A program made the position numbers and the translations under genes. This document shows positions 5,611-34,116 of a DNA stretch of 36,154 nucleotides, piece by piece; the stretch's first letter is position 1; every line of letters begins with the position of its first letter. The notes beneath the pieces are model-generated. The model searched no databases, was not told the origin of the DNA, and saw nothing but the letters and a program-made list of their open reading frames with translations. The stretch is from a virus: UHGV virus genome UHGV-0071286, one strand, 5' to 3'.

Positions 5611-7755
5611 TCAGAGCGGCATTTCATGCATCCGCTGTTGTAGTGTATGCAGCATCTGTTGCTGAAGAACTTCCTGCTCCTGTTCCATATTCTGTATGCC
5701 GGTAATGATTTCTGCCGTATGTGCCTGGTTAAGCGCATCCACATAACGCTGTCCCTGTGCCGCGGCGACATCCCGTTGTGCGCCAGCATTATCCCGTTGC
5801 GCAGCCGCGCGTGCCCTGGCAGCTTCTGCTTCCAGTTTAGCCACCCGGCCTGTCATTTCGCGCATCTGAAGTTCTGCCTGCTGTTGCTCCAGCGCCTGCT
5901 GTTGTGCTGCCGCTTCCTGCTCTTCCGGAGTCATCTCATCCGGTGATTTTGGCGTCCCCAGCGCCGCACGAATACGTTCGACAAATTCCTGTTTCTGCGG
6001 CACATCCAGAAGATTAACCCACAGATCGAGCACAACAGCCTGCACCTGAGGCGGCAGCCCCTGAATAACCTCTGACATTCTCTGTGCAAGCTGTGCCTTA
6101 AACGCCGGTGTCTGCTGAACAGGAGCCAGCGCAATATGTGTATTTAACCTTGAAATATCATTGGTCAGTTCACCATTATCACCTTCAGCATTGAGGACAA
6201 TGGTCTGGCGACGCTGACGATCATCGCGATTAATCACCACCGCATGATTACGCCGCTTTTTCAGGTCATCAAGAAGATAAGCGAGCAACAGCCTTCCCAC
6301 CTGCTGGCAGGCAAACTGGTAGTTATCGTTGATTTCGGCAAGGGTTGTGGCTCCCTGCTCCACCAGGTTGCTGATCGCCACGCCGGACGATGCATTTGAA
6401 TCCTGCCCGAGAAATGCGGAATAAACCCCCATCGTGTCCTGGATAAGTTTTTCCGACTCCTGCATGACCTGAAACTGCTGGCTGGCAACCTGAAAATCCT
6501 GTTCAACCCGGAAAACATCAGCAACGCTTTTCTGATTTTTTCGGGCCGGATTCAGTTTAATAATGCCATCCGGACGCTCGATCTGCTCCATCAGATCGTT
6601 GTCTGACAACTGGGTGGCATCCTCGTCCATAATCACGCGTTTGGCCTGAAGCAACCACGTCAGTTTTATACGACGAAAATTCACCTCATCCTGTGCCGGA
6701 ATGGCCCGGGAAATCAGCCCGTAAGGCTCCCCGGTTTTATCCTTCCGGTATCCCCAGAAGGGAACCAGCGGGAACATCCCCTGCGGCGCACTGCAGGGGC
6801 GATCCACAATAAAGTGCGGTCCCACAAACCAGGCTTCACGAATACGACTTACCCGCCCGACTCTCACCTGCACCCGCCCGGATGCCACAGCCACCGCATG
6901 CATCAGATTATTTTTATCAAAGGCCACCACCCGTCCATTACTGAGTTCAATCACCGGAAGACGCTCGAATGTACGGTAATAAACCACCTGAAGCAGCACA
7001 CGACGGCGTTCACGCTGAAGCCATTCGTTCTGCTGTCGATCCCATGACTGATACTCTTCCCATGCACTCATCAACGGACTGGGCTGGCCTTCAGTAACCG
7101 TGGTATCGACAAAACCACGCCAGTCATCAATGGCATAATCGATAACCTGAGCCATTCCCGGAAATGTGGCTTTTGCCTCATCGGTATCCATCCAGCGGCG
7201 GCGCATCAGCCAGCGGCAGTCACTTAAATCAGCCTCCCGGCTAAGCCAGTCCCAGAACACTTCATTCCGGCTGACAGTAGACACCTTAAACTCAGGCCCG
7301 AACGGATCGCTGTTCCGTCTGACCTCCACCCAGCTGAGCCCCGCTTTGATTTGTTCCGCATAGGCATCAGAACGGGCTTTATTCATATTTCCAAGGCGGC
7401 AAGCATCGGCAAATTCAGCATTAATAGCTTCAGCCAGTTTTTCTGTTTCATCATCAGGATCATCTGATATCACCAACAGATCAGTCCGCGTTTTGGCCTC
7501 CATACCCAGAACACCATCAACGGTAGGCGCGATGAGGTTATGGATGGTCATCGGCTGACCGCGATCTTTCAACACCAGGAGAACTTCCGGTGGCAACTGG
7601 TCACCATCGTAATACGCACAGGCCTTGTTTGCGGCATCGCGCCATTTAGGCTGACTGTCAATATCAGAACAAAGCGCCTGTAACTGGCGCTGAGAAAAAC
7701 GCGGCGTGGCTCCGTTGTCGTTTTTCGTCGCCATGGTATTAGTTTCATTTTTCAT
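5611..7755 (-). CDS. Portal protein (714 aa) with long C-terminal coiled-coil tail
   Basis: Immediately downstream of TerL (ATGA overlap at 7755); size and Ala/Gln/Glu-rich helical C-terminus as in P22 gp1-type portals. Confidence 0.75.
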   Translation of the reverse strand: MKNETNTMATKNDNGATPRFSQRQLQALCSDIDSQPKWRDAANKACAYYDGDQLPPEVLLVLKDRGQPMTIHNLIAPTVDGVLGMEAKTRTDLLVISDDPDDETEKLAEAINAEFADACRLGNMNKARSDAYAEQIKAGLSWVEVRRNSDPFGPEFKVSTVSRNEVFWDWLSREADLSDCRWLMRRRWMDTDEAKATFPGMAQVIDYAIDDWRGFVDTTVTEGQPSPLMSAWEEYQSWDRQQNEWLQRERRRVLLQVVYYRTFERLPVIELSNGRVVAFDKNNLMHAVAVASGRVQVRVGRVSRIREAWFVGPHFIVDRPCSAPQGMFPLVPFWGYRKDKTGEPYGLISRAIPAQDEVNFRRIKLTWLLQAKRVIMDEDATQLSDNDLMEQIERPDGIIKLNPARKNQKSVADVFRVEQDFQVASQQFQVMQESEKLIQDTMGVYSAFLGQDSNASSGVAISNLVEQGATTLAEINDNYQFACQQVGRLLLAYLLDDLKKRRNHAVVINRDDRQRRQTIVLNAEGDNGELTNDISRLNTHIALAPVQQTPAFKAQLAQRMSEVIQGLPPQVQAVVLDLWVNLLDVPQKQEFVERIRAALGTPKSPDEMTPEEQEAAAQQQALEQQQAELQMREMTGRVAKLEAEAARARAAAQRDNAGAQRDVAAAQGQRYVDALNQAHTAEIITGIQNMEQEQEVLQQQMLHTLQQRMHEMPL

Positions 7756-15045: not shown

Positions 15046-15058
15046 ATCCAACAAGAAA

Positions 15059-15293
15059 GCCCCTCCGGAGAGGGGCTGGAGAGTAGCGCTATGTACCGTT
15101 CATGCATGGTGCAGGGTGCCTCCCGGTGAGTTCAGTATCAGCACCTGAACCCGCACCAGAAAGGATAAGGGGTGTGACCAAACACCTGTCGCTGATATGC
15201 CCCTCCGCACAGGGGGATTCACCATGCCATATTTTTTTAACAAACTTCCCGCTGGCCAGACAATAATCGCCAGCCTGAATTGTGAGTAACGTG
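15059..15293 (-). repeat. sRNA-like repeat unit 1, ending in an intrinsic terminator on the minus strand
   Basis: Paralogous to 15542..15755 in blocks (shared 18-bp perfect palindrome GCCCCTCCGGAGAGGGGC at the 3' end, shared GGGGGATTCACCA, TTTTTAACAAA, CCAGACAAT, GAATTGTGAG). On the minus strand the palindrome is followed by UUUCUUGU. Confidence 0.6.
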
Positions 15294-15323: not shown

Positions 15324-15540
15324 AAAAAGGCCCGCCGGAGCGAGCCTGGAAGGATAGCGGTCATGTGATGCCGGTTTCCCGGTAACTCAGCATCGGTATC
15401 TGAGTCAACGTTTTCTCTACTGGGTCATTTCCGATACGTTCCGCCTTCCGGCAGACTTTCATCACGTCAGAAAATATAGCACCCTGAGTAACAGGACAGT
15501 ACTCAGAATTCAGGAAACTGTGACACATCCTGCACAGAAA
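15324..15540 (-). other. Third, more diverged sRNA-like unit with its own terminator
   Basis: Minus-strand hairpin GGCUCGC-UCCG-GCGGGCC (15329-15346) followed by UUUUUACUG; upstream segment shares the ACCGGGA…CATG…GCTA pattern with units 1 and 2. Confidence 0.35.
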
Positions 15541-15541
15541 A

Positions 15542-15755
15542 GCCCCTCCGGAGAGGGGCTGAAGTATAGCCTAATTTCTGTCTGTCGCATGGTGCCAGGT
15601 GCCTCCCGGTAAATTCAGCCTGGCTACTGAATTTGCATGTTCGCTGGATCATACACTTTGCCAGATGCCCCGCCGCTGAGGGGGATTCACCACGCGATGC
15701 AATTTTTAACAAATTCTCCGGCAGCCAGACAATCATCAAGCTGTGGAATTGTGAG
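15542..15755 (-). repeat. sRNA-like repeat unit 2, ending in an intrinsic terminator on the minus strand
   Basis: Same architecture as unit 1; identical terminal palindrome 15542-15559 followed on the minus strand by UUUUCUGUG. Confidence 0.6.
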
Positions 15756-18637: not shown

Positions 18638-19339
18638 TCAGAATTCAAATTGTCTTGCCCGCAGGCTTTTCAGCATTGGCATGGCCCGCTGGATAACGGA
18701 ACTTGACATGTCGAGACGTGTTACTTCCCTCAGTAACGCATCTCTGTTCTTCGTCACCATGTAGATGGTCTCAAACGCAATGTCATACAGCTTGTTCGTG
18801 TATGAGGAGTTCAGCTCTTTCATTATGGGGTACAGCTGCTTGCTAAGGTCCTGGGCTTTTTCCATCCAGAGTTGCATGTAGCAAAGGAGGATGATTTCCT
18901 CGGCTGTGAATTGTGGCTGAATCTGCGGCTGCTGTTCGGTTGGTGCTGTTTTTCCCTGGCTGAAATAGCAGTCTTCCAGTTTTTCGAACACTTCCCTCGC
19001 CTGATCGGTTTCGAGCATTTTTGCGTGACGGGCTGCGCCGCGTTCTGTCCAGAGGATGAGGGAGCGAACATTGCGGGCGATTTTCACAGAGTAACTTTCT
19101 GTTACCTCGCGGCTAACAGACTCGCTTAAAGATAGTCTGTGCTTAAACTCACGTAGTTCATTCCCTTCCAACTTAAAGAAATGTTTTCCCTGTACAAATC
19201 GCGCAGAGTTACGGGAAAAATTCATTTTTATATTGACTGTTTCAGTGCCATACAATTGCGCCAATAATTCTGTAGTAATTACGGGGATCTGGTTGTAGGC
19301 AATTGGGGAAAGAGTTTCAACGGAAATTTGAGTCGCCAT
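18638..19339 (-). CDS. Phage regulatory protein with N-terminal ORF6N/Rha-like domain (233 aa)
   Basis: N-terminal …PVITTELLAQLYGTETVNIKMNFSRNSARFVQGKHFFKLEG… pattern typical of ORF6N/Rha anti-repressor-like domains; SD AGAGGG. Confidence 0.5.
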   Translation of the reverse strand: MATQISVETLSPIAYNQIPVITTELLAQLYGTETVNIKMNFSRNSARFVQGKHFFKLEGNELREFKHRLSLSESVSREVTESYSVKIARNVRSLILWTERGAARHAKMLETDQAREVFEKLEDCYFSQGKTAPTEQQPQIQPQFTAEEIILLCYMQLWMEKAQDLSKQLYPIMKELNSSYTNKLYDIAFETIYMVTKNRDALLREVTRLDMSSSVIQRAMPMLKSLRARQFEF

Positions 19340-19647
19340 GACAACGCCCTCTGGTTGATGAATTTAACTATCACCACCGTCAGGTGCAAATCTTTGGGTG
19401 GTGAGACGTACAGGGTTTGCACTACCGGATCAACCAACCGGCGAGCCTTTCGGCTCCCCCATACGCCCCACCATAATTCAGATGTGCGTGTGCTTACGAC
19501 AACAAAAAACACGCTCGCGGCGTGTGTCTGTCGCGGTTGAATATCCGGGGTGCAAATCCCGACGCCAGATTTTGCTGGCGTGCGAAGAATATAATCCCGG
19601 ATATGTGTTGTCGTCAACATACCTTGAATGTATATAACAAATTTGTT

Positions 19648-19989
19648 ATGTTTACTCTCATGAACTACATTATCGAATACTACAGTGACGAGGTTGAAGC
19701 TGAGATCCTTTCTCTTCCTGAGACCTTACAAGCCCGGTACATTCGGTACACGGAGAAAATGCGTATTTACGGAGCTAATCTTGGTTCCCCGCATACAGAG
19801 GCATTTGGCGACGGTTTGTTTGAAATCCGCCTTAAGGGCTCGGAAGGCATAGGGCGTGTTTTTTACTGCACGCTAAAAGGAAAGCGAATCATTATGTTGC
19901 ATAGCTTTGTAAAGAAAACGCAAAAAACTCCACCTGCCGAGCTTAGAAAAGCTGAAACCAGAATGAAGGAGGTTAAGCATGACTGGTAA
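19648..19989 (+). CDS. Type II toxin, RelE/ParE superfamily (Gp49/HigB-like), 113 aa from MFTLMNY
   Basis: Sequence pattern …GDGLFEIRLKGSEGIGRVFYCTLKGKRIIMLHSFVKKTQKTPPAELRKAE… typical of Gp49-like addiction-module killers; on the strand opposite to the surrounding operon; downstream antitoxin overlaps by 11 nt. Confidence 0.7.
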   Translation: MFTLMNYIIEYYSDEVEAEILSLPETLQARYIRYTEKMRIYGANLGSPHTEAFGDGLFEIRLKGSEGIGRVFYCTLKGKRIIMLHSFVKKTQKTPPAELRKAETRMKEVKHDW

Positions 19990-20287
19990 ACGTACCCCAC
20001 CTACCATGACACACGATGAAATGGTAGAAAAAATGTTGTCTAACCCCGCAGTAAAAGCAGAATACGACGCCATCGCCGATGAATTCGCACTACTTGATGA
20101 AATGCTGGCAGCACGAAAAGAAGCTGGCTTAACCCAGGCTGAAGTTGCTGAACGTATGGGAACAAAAGCGACTGCGATAACCAGAATGGAAAGCAATCTT
20201 GCATCAGGTACAAGCGGCCCATCATTTGCCACACTGAAAAAATTCGCCCGTGCTACAGGGAAAAAACTCCAGATCCGCTTCGTTTAA
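19979..20287 (+). CDS. XRE-family HTH antitoxin (HigA-like), 102 aa
   Basis: HTH segment LTQAEVAERMGTKATAITRMESN; strong SD AAGGAGG 7 nt upstream; translationally coupled to the toxin. Confidence 0.7.
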   Translation: MTGKRTPPTMTHDEMVEKMLSNPAVKAEYDAIADEFALLDEMLAARKEAGLTQAEVAERMGTKATAITRMESNLASGTSGPSFATLKKFARATGKKLQIRFV

Positions 20288-20341
20288 CTCTCCACTACCG
20301 CGCCGTCATTCTGGCGGCGCTTTACCCCAGAGAAATATCAA

Positions 20342-20587
20342 TCACCGGATTACCACATCCCACTCCGGCTCCTGCCATCTCAAATCCGGTGAATCATTTC
20401 TCTCAGGAATAACCATTACGTCCTTTTCCCTTCGCTCCCTTTCTATCGCCATCACAGCCAATGCTGCAACCATGATGTATTTTTGTTCGTCGGTTCCTGT
20501 TTCATAACGACGCATGAGGGTAAACTCGGGGCGATCAGTAACCTCAATGATTTCGTTAATTTCTTTAATTTCGCGAGGAATATCCAT
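20342..20587 (-). CDS. Small acidic hypothetical protein (81 aa from MDIPREIKE)
   Basis: ATG at 20587 with SD AAGGAGA 8 nt upstream; start codon shares the CCATGG palindrome with the divergent DUF4145 gene. Confidence 0.4.
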   Translation of the reverse strand: MDIPREIKEINEIIEVTDRPEFTLMRRYETGTDEQKYIMVAALAVMAIERERREKDVMVIPERNDSPDLRWQEPEWDVVIR

Positions 20588-21260
20588 GGGTTTAGTCTCC
20601 TTTGATATCACATGCCCGCACTGTTTAAAAGAGCGAGCTGTTATTGAGGCATTTGCCGAAAAACAAATTGAAAAAACACCTTTTTTTAACGTCGCTTTTG
20701 TATGCAGAAGTTGTCATCGAGGAGGTGTTGCTATTGTTGAAATCCCATCAGACCACTATCACGGTCCCATGGCGGAAAGCCAGAAAAAAGACCTCGATAT
20801 TCTGATTTCAGGAAATAGCCAGTACCGTTTCCGCAAGATCTATCCTGTGGTCAAAAAAATTACCGCACCAGAATATACGCCCCCGGTTGCAGACCGTACT
20901 TTTGTTGAGGCAAAAGAGGATTTACAGAGGAGGCGGTACGACACAGTGGTTATTCTTTGTCGCAGAGTCCTCGATATCTCCACGAAAAAACTGCTCGGCG
21001 ATGAAGCAGGAAAAGAATCGCTGTCGCAACGTATTCAGATGATTTACAAAAAAGGCCTGATCACTGAACAGATGAAGGAATGGGCTCATATTGTACGAAT
21101 TGATGCCAATAAAGCAGTTCATACAGATGAAGTTTTCACACCAATTGAGGCAAGCCAGATCCTGAGTTTTACCGAAATGTTTTTAGTCTACGCCTTCACT
21201 CTGCCTGCAATGGTGGAAGCCAGACGTGAACAAAAAAGATCAGATTCAGCCTCTATATGA
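20586..21260 (+). CDS. Zn-ribbon + DUF4145-like domain protein (224 aa from MGLVSFDITCPHC)
   Basis: N-terminal CPHC…CRSC ribbon; C-terminal …ILCRRVLDISTKKLLG…IQMIYKKGLITEQMKEWAHIVRIDANKAVH…SQILSFTEMFLVYAF matches the DUF4145 pattern (R-x2-[GA]-N-x-A-x-H) as I recall it; SD GAGGAA 7 nt upstream; opposite strand to the operon; AT-rich. Confidence 0.6.
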   Translation: MGLVSFDITCPHCLKERAVIEAFAEKQIEKTPFFNVAFVCRSCHRGGVAIVEIPSDHYHGPMAESQKKDLDILISGNSQYRFRKIYPVVKKITAPEYTPPVADRTFVEAKEDLQRRRYDTVVILCRRVLDISTKKLLGDEAGKESLSQRIQMIYKKGLITEQMKEWAHIVRIDANKAVHTDEVFTPIEASQILSFTEMFLVYAFTLPAMVEARREQKRSDSASI

Positions 21261-21292
21261 ATCACTTTTCTGAACACGTAAGCCCCCGTCAT

Positions 21293-21724
21293 TCACGACG
21301 GGGAGAACATCAATCCCTCTGCACTCCCTCGCCAGAATGCCAGCACACGCTGCATCGTTTCGCTGTTACGGCACTCGCGACAAATTGTGTTGTAGCGTCT
21401 GTCGTAGCGCCGTATTTCCCCATCTGGTAATGCCCGGATAAGGTCTGGATCAACGACAACCGGTTTCTTCGACTTTGCCCTTGAGAGTTTTTTGCGGGCA
21501 TTTTGCCAGTCCTTACGAGCCTGTTCAGACGGGAATACTCCGTAACCGGAATTGTAAACATCACCACTGGCGGCCAGCTCCATGCATAAACGACCGACAG
21601 ACGCATGACTGACACCAATTTCATCCGATAACTGCCGAATCGTGCCTCGTCCGTTAAGGCGTACGAATTCCACGATCAGCCCCTTAATTTTTTCCCGCTC
21701 TTCTGGTGTAAATGCTCTTGTCAT
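21293..21724 (-). CDS. Hypothetical replication-region protein (143 aa from MTRAFTPEE)
   Basis: ATG at 21724 with SD GGAGGTG; winged-helix-like N-terminus. Confidence 0.5.
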   Translation of the reverse strand: MTRAFTPEEREKIKGLIVEFVRLNGRGTIRQLSDEIGVSHASVGRLCMELAASGDVYNSGYGVFPSEQARKDWQNARKKLSRAKSKKPVVVDPDLIRALPDGEIRRYDRRYNTICRECRNSETMQRVLAFWRGSAEGLMFSPS

Positions 21725-30282: not shown

Positions 30283-32355
30283 ATGAGCGCTGATAAACAG
30301 ACTTTTGCACTACACTGCGAAGCAAAAAACGATAAAGTCAGAAAACGCCTTGGCATCAAAGGCGGTTTTTTCTGGACCGAGGCCAGAAAACTTTCTGTCG
30401 CAGTTTCCCGCTGCATTGCAGCCATGGACGATGCAGGCTACGACGAGGATGATTTCAAAAAACCCGTTCGCGTAAATTTCCCCGTCGTGAATGACCTTCC
30501 ACCGGAAGGCGTGTTTGATACTGAATTCTGCAACCGCTATGAAAAAGGCGGTAACGATGGCATCACCATGATGGCTATCCCCTTCGATGACAACATCAAC
30601 GGTGAAGATGCCACAACTGCTGGCGATGACAACGATAACCTGGACGGAACTATTCCGGATGATGTGGAGAAAAGCGAATCCCCGGACAGCGACGATGACT
30701 GTTCTGAGTGTGAAATTCCCGTCGCCACTCTGAGCCTTACTCATCGCTTCCTTCACCTCTTCTTATTCAGCAAAGATGAAGATGGAAAATACCGGCATCA
30801 TGCCACACCAGAACAACGCAATAACGTGATCCGTATGGAGATGGACACAGAGGACAGTTACCTTCAGAGCCTGCTTACTGCTGTGCGCGCCGCGCATCAT
30901 GAACTGGATAAACTGACGAACTATCACCTTAGTCGCCTGGCTGAATCTGTAGGGAAAGCATTCCCCCACTCTGCAAATCATCGCATCAGCCCGGCTGAAT
31001 TCGACAAGTTCATTTCCACCTGGATGAAAACTGACTACCTTGATCAGGGCCTGCTGACAAAAGAATGGCAGAACGGAAATTATGTTTCAGGCATTACCCG
31101 TACGCCTTCCGGTGCTAACGCTGGCGGCGGAAATATTACCGATCGTGGTGAAGGATTCAAACATGATAAGACATCACTCGCACGAGATGTAGCCACCGGC
31201 GTTCTGGCCCGTTCAATGGATGTGGATATTTATAACCTGCACCCAGCACACGCAAAACGCGTTGAAGAAATCGTGTCAGAGAATAAGCCGCCCTTTTCTG
31301 TTTTTCGCGACAAATTTATCGCCATGCCCGGTGGGCTGGATTATTCCCGCGCCATTGTGGTGGCTTCCGTGAAAGAAGCACCAATCGGCATTGAGGCCAT
31401 CCCGGCACGCGTGACTGAATATCTCAACAAAGTGTTGACCGAAACCGATCACGCTAACCCGGATCCGGAAATCGTGGAAATTGCCTGCGGTCGCTCATCA
31501 GCACCGATGCCGCAGCGCGGAACAGCAGAAGGAAAACATGGCGATGAAGAAAAGCAACAAGCATCGGACACAATGGCTAATGAACAGGCAGCGCCTGAAT
31601 CAGTGGAAGAAATTCCAGTTAAACATAATGAGGACACGCAATCACTGGAAAATGTCTCATCTGTAGAAACGAAATACCAGGAACTGAGGGAGGAACTCAA
31701 TAAAGCCAGGGAAAACATCCCCCCAAAAAATCCAGTCGATGCCGACAAATTACTGGCTGCCTCGCGTGGAGAATTCGTTGAAGGCATCAGTAACCCTGCT
31801 GATCCGAAGTGGGTGAAGGGGATCCAGACTCGCGACACTGAGGACCAGAATCAGTCCAAAGTGGAACAAATTGCCCCAGAAGCGGGACAAAACAGCCCGG
31901 ATACGCAACAAAACGGGTCAGAAGAGCAACAGCCAGGGCCAGTAGCGCAACCGGAGCTGGAAAAAAACTGCCGCGTCTGTGGTCAGACTGGCGGGGGTAA
32001 CTGCCCTGACTGTAGTGCGGTAATGGGCGATAGCACTTACACAGAAACTTTTGGAGAAAATGACGCCGCTGATGGAGAAGACTCAGCACAAACTGAGGAG
32101 AAGATCATTCAGGAAAACTCTGTTGATGCCGCTCAGGAGGGCGAAACCGTTGTTCAGAACGAGCCAGGCAGTGATACGTCCGGCGATGACGCCAATTCTG
32201 AGCCAGTAACTCTCGACTGGAAAAGACAGCTCGTGATTGCCGCCGTCTATGGTTTGTGCGCCAACCCCGCATGTATAGCCACAGCGCCAGCAATCCCTGA
32301 TATCGCCATCATGATTGCCAACAGGCTTGAAAATTTCGGAGGTGATAAATCATGA
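30283..32355 (+). CDS. Large acidic hypothetical protein (690 aa) with C-terminal CxxC…CxxC ribbon and hydrophobic tail, translationally coupled to gam
   Basis: ATG at 30283; stop overlaps the gam start (ATGA at 32352-32355); long Asp/Glu/Gln-rich low-complexity tracts; [16 protein letters not shown]; terminal [29 protein letters not shown]. Confidence 0.6.
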
Positions 32356-32648
32356 ATGCCTGGCTTATCCCCGATCGCATTGAAGAGCAGTCATGGGCAC
32401 GACACTACCAGCAAATTGCCCGTGAAGAAACTGAAGCTGAGCTGGCAGACGACCTGGAAAAAGGTCTGCCCCAACACCTGTTTGAATCGCTATGCATCGA
32501 TAATCTGCAACGTCACGGGGCCAGCAAAAAAGCTATTTCCCGTGCATTTGATGACGATGTCGATTTTCAGGAACGCATGGCAGAACACATCCGCTACATG
32601 GCTGAAACCATCGCCCGTCACCAAATTAATATTGATTCAGAGGTATAA
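32352..32648 (+). CDS. gam: Gam (RecBCD inhibitor), short form, 98 aa
   Basis: …[19 protein letters not shown]…[21 protein letters not shown]… matches lambda Gam; SD GGAGGTGA. Confidence 0.9.
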
Positions 32649-32653
32649 AACGG

Positions 32654-33439
32654 ATGAGTACAGCACTCGCAACGCTGGCAGGGAAGCTGGCTGAACGTGT
32701 CGGCATGGATTCTGTCGACCCACAGGAACTAATCACCACTCTTCGCCAGACGGCATTTAAAGGTGATGCCAGCGATGCGCAATTTATCGCATTGTTGATC
32801 GTCGCCAACCAGTACGGCCTTAATCCCTGGACGAAAGAAATTTACGCCTTCCCTGACAAGCAGAACGGCATCGTTCCGGTGGTTGGCGTTGATGGCTGGT
32901 CCCGCATTATCAATGAAAACCAGCAGTTTGATGGCATGGACTTTGAGCAGGACAATGAGTCCTGTACATGCCGGATTTACCGCAAAGATCGCAATCACCC
33001 GATCTGCGTTACCGAGTGGATGGATGAATGTCGCCGCGCACCATTCAAAACCCGCGAAGGCAGAGAAATCACCGGACCGTGGCAGTCGCATCCCAAACGG
33101 ATGTTACGGCACAAAGCCATGATTCAGTGTGCTCGCCTGGCCTTCGGATTTGCTGGCATCTATGACAAGGATGAAGCCGAGCGTATTGTCGAAAATACTG
33201 CATATACTACAGAACGTCAGCCGGAACGCGACATCACCCCGGTTAACGAAGAAACCATGTCGGAAATTAACGCCCTTCTTACTTCCATGGAAAAAACGTG
33301 GGATGACGACCTGTTGCCGCTCTGTTCCCAGATTTTTCGCCGCAACATTTACACATCTTCAGAACTAACACAGGCTGAAGCTGTGAAGGTTCTTGGATTC
33401 CTGAAACAGAAAGTCACAGAGCAGAAGGTAGCAGCATGA
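32654..33439 (+). CDS. bet: Bet (Red-beta single-strand annealing protein), 261 aa
   Basis: Near-identical to lambda Bet as recalled ([37 protein letters not shown]…). Confidence 0.95.
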
Positions 33440-34116
33440 CACCGGACATTATCCTGCAACGTACAGGGATCGACGTGAGAGCTGTCGAACAGGGGGATGA
33501 TGCGTGGCACAAATTACGGCTCGGCGTCATCACCGCTTCAGAAGTTCACAACGTGATAGCAAAACCCCGCTCAGGAAAGAAATGGCCTGACATGAAAATG
33601 TCCTACTTCCACACCCTGCTGGCTGAGGTTTGCACCGGTGTGGCTCCGGAAGTTAACGCTAAAGCGCTGGCCTGGGGAACACAGTACGAGAACGACGCCA
33701 GAGCCCTCTTTGAGTTCACTTCCGGCGTGAATGTTACTGAATCCCCGATCATCTATCGCGACGAAAGTATGCGCACCGCCTGCTCTCCCGATGGTTTATG
33801 CAGTGACGGCAACGGCCTTGAGCTGAAATGCCCGTTTACCTCCCGGGATTTCATGAAGTTCCGGCTCGGTGGTTTCGAGGCCATAAAGTCGGCTTACATG
33901 GCCCAGGTGCAGTACAGCATGTGGGTGACACGAAAAGATGCCTGGTACTTTGCCAACTATGACCCACGAATGAAGCGTGAAGGCCTGCATTATGTCGTGG
34001 TTGAGCGGGATGAAAATTACATGGCGAGTTTTGACGAGATGGTGCCGGAGTTCATCGAAAAAATGGACGAGGCACTGGCTGAAATTGGTTTTGTATTTGG
34101 GGAGCAATGGCGATAG
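33436..34116 (+). CDS. exo: Exo (Red-alpha 5'-3' exonuclease), 226 aa
   Basis: Near-identical to lambda Exo as recalled ([65 protein letters not shown]…); ATGA overlap with bet. Confidence 0.95.

Follow-up and report, generated by a model that had tools for sequence, protein, structure and literature searches.

The DNA analysed here, the 36,154-nucleotide (nt) virus genome UHGV-0071286 (the window, as a whole), carries a group of accessory genes between its replication genes and its nin region. This region is probably an accessory-gene hotspot whose two modules function independently of each other and run opposite to the phage early-right operon. One module appears to be an ordinary toxin-antitoxin pair, and the other combines an RNase resembling the abortive-infection protein RAZR with a small partner that would modulate it. 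The RNase, which consists of a zinc ribbon and a DUF4145 domain, belongs to a divergent, prophage-specific two-gene form of a kind of protein with a known mechanism. What is new is the small partner gene, less well characterised and of more interest than anything else in the region. The initial annotation, made from the sequence alone, had named the DUF4145 gene as the least characterised part and missed the conserved small gene. It had also described the DUF4145 protein as having no characterised mechanism, which is out of date, as the protein has the same architecture as RAZR, the renamed PD-T7-4 (PMC13017515).

The small gene (20342..20587, − strand) encodes 81 amino acids (aa), is present in the NCBI genome annotation and has the Shine-Dalgarno sequence AAGGAGA. 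It lies in the gap of about 300 bp downstream of the antitoxin gene, which had been taken to be empty. Its ATG overlaps the ATG of the DUF4145 gene by 2 nt (CCATGG), so that the two genes stand head-to-head. No match to the 81-aa protein was found in Pfam, among the sequences of solved structures or in PADLOC, and its sole match is a PHROG family of unknown function. Its structure model shows a bundle of three helices and a disordered tail. Across the 3′ end of the gene lies an imperfect 30-nt inverted repeat (77% complementary, arms 31 nt apart, 20322-20351 / 20383-20412).

We scanned 114 stretches (the fetched loci and the window) by tblastn and hidden Markov model searches, and 71 of them contained homologues of the 81-aa protein. 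In these 71 stretches the homologue is always located on the opposite strand, immediately upstream of the DUF4145 gene. The open reading frames (ORFs) are 54-93 aa long, and the 2-base overlap with the DUF4145 ATG is present in 64 of 105 loci. When the DUF4145 proteins were clustered at 80% identity, 20 of the resulting 30 clusters had the small gene, or 22 if Photorhabdus and one Enterobacter locus, where the inferred start is shifted, are included. The hosts include E. coli, Atlantibacter, Enterobacter, Symbiopectobacterium, Tatumella, Rosenbergiella, Photorhabdus and Paraburkholderia. At several loci, the source gene calls list no gene at this position.

The small proteins diverge down to 28% identity yet keep the motif [SA]DRPEFTL.QRYE...QK...IGKLIE.DR, in which R19, P20, E21 and L24 are invariant. 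As the motif is kept despite this divergence, the small gene is a real protein-coding gene. Divergence between the small proteins also tracks that of their DUF4145 partners (Spearman 0.73). Within E. coli, substitutions in the small ORF number 7, 14 and 21 at codon positions 1, 2 and 3, respectively. This is a weak signal of selection, and the case for a real gene therefore rests on conservation across genera. The small gene was absent from the loci of a subgroup of 212-aa RNases, from the Pantoea loci, and from beside the RAZR-type genes in the RAZR-type loci scanned. One clade (L070, L071, L073 and L091) contains a decayed remnant, IKLLHLAIVIER..., with ATC in place of ATG and an early stop, which is still similar to intact homologues such as MNVLHLAKEIERELISSDRPEF. 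This suggests that the partner was recently lost in this lineage.

The initial annotation had joined the toxin, antitoxin and DUF4145 genes into a single three-gene cassette. This grouping does not hold, as the toxin-antitoxin pair and the DUF4145 gene are swapped independently. In E. coli prophages, a block of small gene and DUF4145 gene that is 97-100% identical adjoins three toxin-antitoxin families: Gp49/XRE, RelE/HigA, and a third pair of a 123-aa RelE and a 106-aa helix-turn-helix (HTH) protein. A fourth pair, TumE/TumA, fills the same slot beside the small gene where DUF4145 is absent. With at least four unrelated pairs found in it, the slot between the ORF6N and DUF977 genes behaves as a hotspot of toxin-antitoxin exchange. 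Whichever pair is upstream, the conserved block begins at about position 20294, just past the antitoxin stop codon. A GC-rich hairpin (20300..20320, without assigned strand, −16.5 kcal/mol) lies between the convergent antitoxin and small genes, and travels with the small-gene block rather than with the toxin-antitoxin pair. It has a TTT tail only, in line with its earlier description as a weak terminator. As the slot is swapped among pairs and the modules exchange independently, the toxin-antitoxin pair and the DUF4145 gene are neighbours and not one system.

In some E. coli prophages where DUF4145 is absent and the small gene is kept, a − strand gene for a 166-aa hypothetical protein lies beyond a gap of about 300 nt (L004 4106-4606 and L006 4115-4615). 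PhiR12_3-type loci carry this 166-aa protein as well as DUF4145. Phage PhiR12_3 has the whole block of ORF6N, toxin-antitoxin, small and DUF4145 genes in its early-left region. We found no papers on phages PhiR5_2 and PhiR12_3.

Beyond E. coli, DUF4145 homologues with 36-52% identity occur among phage genes in Atlantibacter, Enterobacter, Pantoea and Paraburkholderia prophages, at the junction of ninB and the replication genes, at the lysis/terminase junction, or elsewhere. At the loci of these four genera, no adjoining gene had a toxin-antitoxin-like Pfam match. Within about 4 kb, none of the 80-odd loci from other genera contained a relative of the four E. coli pairs; other toxin-antitoxin families lay outside this search. 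At 25 of 27 representative loci, the ORFs on either side lie mainly on the opposite strand.

These loci bear on the idea of one integrated defence system, in which the DUF4145 effector is controlled or assisted by the HigBA-like pair and all + strand genes work together. The toxin-antitoxin and DUF4145 genes are indeed adjacent and on the same strand, and every E. coli locus examined has some toxin-antitoxin pair beside the small and DUF4145 genes. As the hairpin after the antitoxin gene has a weak T tail, read-through into the DUF4145 gene is also possible. However, the slot accommodates four unrelated families, three of them beside a nearly identical block, and the block boundary is directly after the antitoxin stop codon. 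The other-genus loci do without a relative of the four pairs within about 4 kb, and RAZR works as a single gene (PMC13017515). We therefore regard an integrated system as very improbable, and consider the two modules separately.

The RAZR-like protein of the second module (224 aa, 20586..21260, + strand) matches DUF4145 (PF13643) with 36.9 bits, which is above the curated cut-off. The protein consists of a C4 zinc ribbon (residues 1-52, 20586-20741), a helix/strand insert (53-86), a proline-rich linker (87-99) and the DUF4145/HEPN domain (100-224). In the AlphaFold2 model, which has a predicted local distance difference test (pLDDT) score of 90, the zinc ribbon is rich in β-structure, the insert is a short helix/strand element, and a linker leads to a bundle of helices. 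In an alignment of 33 family sequences, the zinc ligands C10, C13, C40 and C43 are invariant, as are the catalytic residues R171 (21096-21098), N175 (21108-21110) and H179 (21120-21122). The zinc ribbon and DUF4145 domain recognised in the initial annotation are thus upheld, and the HEPN fold with an R-x(4-7)-H site that it had proposed for checking is confirmed, with a conserved R-x7-H site. The C4 pattern (CxxC...CxxC) recurs in 115 of the 132 representatives of full length, and R-x3-N-x3-H in 121. The 224-aa protein has 83 close relatives, nearly all from Enterobacterales. At E ≤ 1e-3, a profile search retrieved 3,321 cluster representatives, of which 207 reach E ≤ 1e-30; most are 205-230 aa long and matched over their full length.

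Could this protein serve the phage life cycle, for example as a nucleic-acid-binding regulator, without a role in defence? Its PHROG match, phrog_1305, carries the label "DNA binding protein", and the family is found almost exclusively in prophage contexts. Such a role is difficult to reconcile with the invariance of the HEPN catalytic triad and C4 ligands and with homology to a validated defence protein, RAZR. It also does not fit the position of the gene at three different places in phage genomes, or the fact that it runs against the phage operon at 25 of the 27 representative loci, as would be expected of an accessory gene expressed during lysogeny. A function confined to the phage life cycle is quite improbable.

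RAZR was described in E. coli UMB1727 (PDB 9y9c; Zhang et al., Nature 2026, PMC13017515). It assembles as a 24-mer ring around phage ring proteins, namely the Erf-like Gp77 or portal proteins, and cleaves single-stranded RNA nonspecifically via R146/H154 (PMC13017515). It acts by abortive infection as a single gene, is non-toxic alone, also when overproduced, and has its trigger specificity set by the zinc-finger domain (PMC13017515). For comparison with the 224-aa protein, we reassembled RAZR (219 aa) from two fragments in the databases. The rebuilt sequence fits all residue numbers quoted in PMC13017515 (V21, AGN68-70, R146, H154, D179, D180 and R184).

The sequence comparisons identify the 224-aa protein as a remote homologue of RAZR. 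BLASTP aligned the two proteins with 24% identity over 141 aa (E 3e-5), and hhalign gave a probability of 82% (E 1e-5). In the profile, BLASTP and hhalign alignments, R171/H179 pair with R146/H154, and P87 pairs with the invariant P66. The family profile weakly finds the RAZR cryo-EM chain 9y9c_OA, and 19 of the 33 family members match the PADLOC PD-T7-4 model (best E 2.8e-7). The profile also weakly matches RPB9/TFIIS zinc ribbons, including 1qyp, a zinc ribbon that the RAZR authors used as well (PMC13017515). Database relatives of the RAZR HEPN domain (P0103-P0222) are mostly called at 146-168 aa, with no zinc ribbon or half of one (one CxxC). Either these gene calls are cut short, or the zinc-finger domain is genuinely missing from such forms.

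Several observations weigh against reading the 224-aa protein as a RAZR-like RNase with a small partner. The window protein itself scores only 15.5 bits on the PD-T7-4 model (E 0.002), in the HEPN part only, and a phmmer search with it finds nothing in PDB. The zinc-ribbon domains of the two proteins are not alignable by sequence, and relative to RAZR the 224-aa protein has an extra insert of about 34 residues (53-86). The catalytic loop (172-178) is modelled at pLDDT <50. The RAZR residues D179, D180 and R184, whose salt bridges build the dimer-dimer interface on which higher-order oligomers depend (PMC13017515), correspond to V201, Y202 and L206, of which Y202 and L206 are invariant in the 224-aa family. 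As these interface residues are not conserved, assembly into a ring or filament may differ from that of RAZR. Neither strict nor relaxed scans revealed a convincing or positionally conserved promoter for the DUF4145 gene, and in the papers searched we found no member of the clade that had been tested for defence. Finally, the small gene is kept without DUF4145 in a few E. coli prophages, and some RNase clades lack the small gene. As each occurs alone in some loci or clades, the association between the small gene and the RNase is not obligatory in either direction.

We nevertheless favour two modules, the second being a RAZR-like RNase with a modulating partner, and propose how they may act. 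The Gp49-family toxin probably cuts mRNA endonucleolytically in a ribosome-dependent manner. Translation of the XRE antitoxin is coupled to that of the toxin, and the antitoxin probably represses the promoter via the palindrome at 19634-19649. In the second module, the zinc ribbon of the 224-aa protein would recognise a protein of a superinfecting phage, as in RAZR. The DUF4145/HEPN domain would then cleave RNA via R171/N175/H179, stopping translation and blocking phage spread by abortive infection. The small gene and the phage lytic operon share a direction, so that transcription from early-right would traverse the RNase gene in antisense before reaching and expressing the small gene. The small protein would modulate the RNase, most plausibly by silencing it when the prophage is induced. 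It may instead have an antitoxin-like or a regulatory role.

One specific form of this role is that of a self-immunity factor, or "anti-RAZR". Here, the small protein would bind the RNase and switch it off on induction, being transcribed with the lytic operon through the RNase gene and antisense to it. The rings formed by the phage's own portal or recombinase would then not act as a trigger, and the 2-nt start overlap would keep effector and antidote inseparable. We put this forward tentatively, as a possibility well short of an even chance. An alternative is that the small and HEPN proteins form a toxin-antitoxin-like addiction pair, in which a constitutively toxic RNase is neutralised and the prophage is stabilised, with no sensing of phage rings. 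The divergent orientation of the two genes is atypical of type II pairs, and whole RNase clades (the 212-aa subgroup and Pantoea) manage without the small gene, which has decayed in one further clade. In addition, overproduced RAZR alone is non-toxic (PMC13017515), and the invariance of the zinc ribbon favours a role in sensing. An addiction pair is therefore unlikely, though somewhat less so than the integrated or life-cycle explanations.

RAZR is a bacterial RNase that is switched on by assembly around large phage protein rings (PMC13017515). A temperate phage with a RAZR-like sensor must make its own portal, here encoded at 5611-7755, and the window also encodes Bet, at 32654-33439, which raises the question of how killing of the host is avoided on induction. 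The recombination genes of the window are located at 30283-34116 (+ strand) and encode a RecE-family exonuclease (690 aa), Bet, a lambda-type exonuclease and Gam, as read from the annotation of a near-identical prophage in E. coli G1/2. Redβ-type recombinases form rings, so Bet is relevant as a possible self-trigger of a RAZR-like sensor. The clade is large (the 3,321 cluster representatives given above), prophage-borne and, unlike RAZR, usually locked to a tiny conserved gene. For a HEPN defence protein, this gene is a candidate partner in self-immunity or regulation. The clade also supplies highly divergent zinc-ribbon sensor domains, with which trigger specificity may be mapped.

The first module is, judging from its genes, an ordinary type II toxin-antitoxin module of the HigB/HigA type, with the RelE/HigB-like toxin and XRE antitoxin that the initial annotation had recognised. 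The toxin (19660..19989, + strand, 109 aa) is a Gp49/HigB-like member of the RelE/ParE superfamily. It matches Gp49 (PF05973) with 94 bits (E 5e-27, above the curated cut-off), and its closest solved structure is HigB 6af3 (E 7e-5). The ORF had been read as 113 aa long from a start at 19648. While the ORF itself stands, a start at 19660, giving 109 aa, is more likely, as the NCBI genome annotation has the equivalent start and the phrog_2523 alignment begins at residue 6 of the 113-aa form. The XRE-type HTH antitoxin (19979..20287, + strand, 102 aa) matches HTH_3 (PF01381) with 43 bits (E 3.6e-11, above the curated cut-off) and phrog_1373. The toxin gene precedes the antitoxin gene and has no Shine-Dalgarno sequence. 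The two genes overlap by 11 nt, and the antitoxin ATG (19979), located in the 3′ end of the toxin gene, follows an AAGGAGG sequence, which agrees with the coupling and the strong Shine-Dalgarno sequence noted earlier.

The conserved block of the toxin-antitoxin module begins at about position 19600 in 92%-identical loci. A relaxed promoter scan found a candidate promoter for the pair, TTGAAT-17-TATGTT with a TG-extended −10 element (19624..19652, + strand). This promoter would start transcription at about 19659, so that the toxin message would have almost no leader. Within the promoter lies a perfect 16-nt palindrome, ATAACAAATTTGTTAT (19634-19649), likely the autoregulatory operator of the pair. 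A different palindrome, at 19563-19580, had been proposed as the operator of the cassette. We rejected it in this role, as it forms stem-loop 1 of an isrK-like small RNA (sRNA) on the opposite strand.

This isrK-like sRNA (19504..19581, − strand) is a full-length match to Rfam RF01394 with 75.4 bits against a gathering score of 50. It has a promoter-like site, TTGACG-18-TATATT (19617..19588, − strand), found in a promoter scan and standing back-to-back with the candidate toxin-antitoxin promoter, and a terminator (19525..19509, − strand) found in a terminator scan. Just downstream on the same strand is a full-length match to the C4 antisense RNA (RF01695, 74 bits, 19394-19478). Both RNA matches are directly upstream of an ORF6N/P22_AR_C antirepressor-like gene (18638-19339). 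We assign the isrK/C4 RNAs to the module of the antirepressor-like gene and not to the accessory genes. This corrects the local map: the two RNAs would control the neighbouring gene, in what looks like an RNA-controlled antirepressor module such as that of isrK in Gifsy-1.

The window as a whole is an E. coli lambdoid, Stx-phage-like prophage, and matches, at about 99% identity across almost its entire length, a prophage that E. coli G1/2 carries at ynfG. The order of its − strand genes is DnaC-like, DUF1627, DUF977, the accessory region, ORF6N/P22_AR_C, ninB and ninE. The three + strand ORFs (19648/19660-19989, 19979-20287 and 20586-21260) described in the initial annotation are present within this − strand operon, with Pfam matches above cut-offs, and their inversion as prophage accessory genes relative to the phage operon is confirmed. 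The AT-richness that it had reported is real and modest: the GC fraction of the accessory region is 0.449, whereas the window as a whole has 0.500 and the flanks range over 0.47-0.55. A further hairpin, CCCCGTC-n6-GACGGGG (21284..21303, without assigned strand), lies between the convergent DUF4145 and DUF977 genes, at −14.5 kcal/mol on the + strand and −16.5 on the −. As it has no T-run, we only presume a function for it. Elsewhere in the window, two tandem full-length copies of the STnc100 sRNA (RF02076, 130 and 139 bits, 15047-15256 and 15532-15725, − strand) are found upstream of a SASA-family esterase gene and the lysis region.

Of the known systems, HigBA-type systems such as S. pneumoniae HigBA (PDB 6af3) resemble the first module in having the toxin gene first, overlapping genes, a RelE-superfamily toxin and an XRE HTH antitoxin, and the window pair also has a palindrome in its promoter region. 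The window toxin differs in being only remotely similar to the solved HigB (E 7e-5). The Gifsy-1 IsrK locus, where the biology of IsrK was described (PMC4825925), is matched by the window in the full-length isrK and C4 RNAs upstream of an ORF6N/P22_AR_C antirepressor-like gene. The difference is that isrK in the window is outside the accessory modules, on the opposite strand, and tied to antirepressor control.

The second module has several counterparts among HEPN and DUF4145 proteins. HepS, the HEPN defence protein of the Gifsy-1 prophage (PDB 9oik), is likewise a prophage-borne, single-protein HEPN effector; its structure was determined in complex with the J tail tip of phage lambda, according to the title of that PDB entry. 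DS-38/HEP2 (DefensePredictor) is similarly a single E. coli protein with a zinc finger and HEPN. Identity with DS-38 is ruled out, as DS-38 is the 366-aa protein WP_001313577.1. The DUF4145 proteins Ishtar and BxaP were rejected because of their different architectures. RAZR shares with the 224-aa protein an N-terminal C4 zinc ribbon, a proline-containing linker, a C-terminal DUF4145/HEPN domain, a length of about 220 aa and an aligned R-x3-N-x3-H site, and both are carried on mobile elements in Enterobacteria. However, their identity of about 24% is limited to the linker and HEPN domain. Furthermore, RAZR is a lone gene by an integrase, without a small partner, whereas the window clade is found in lambdoid prophages, start-to-start with the small gene.

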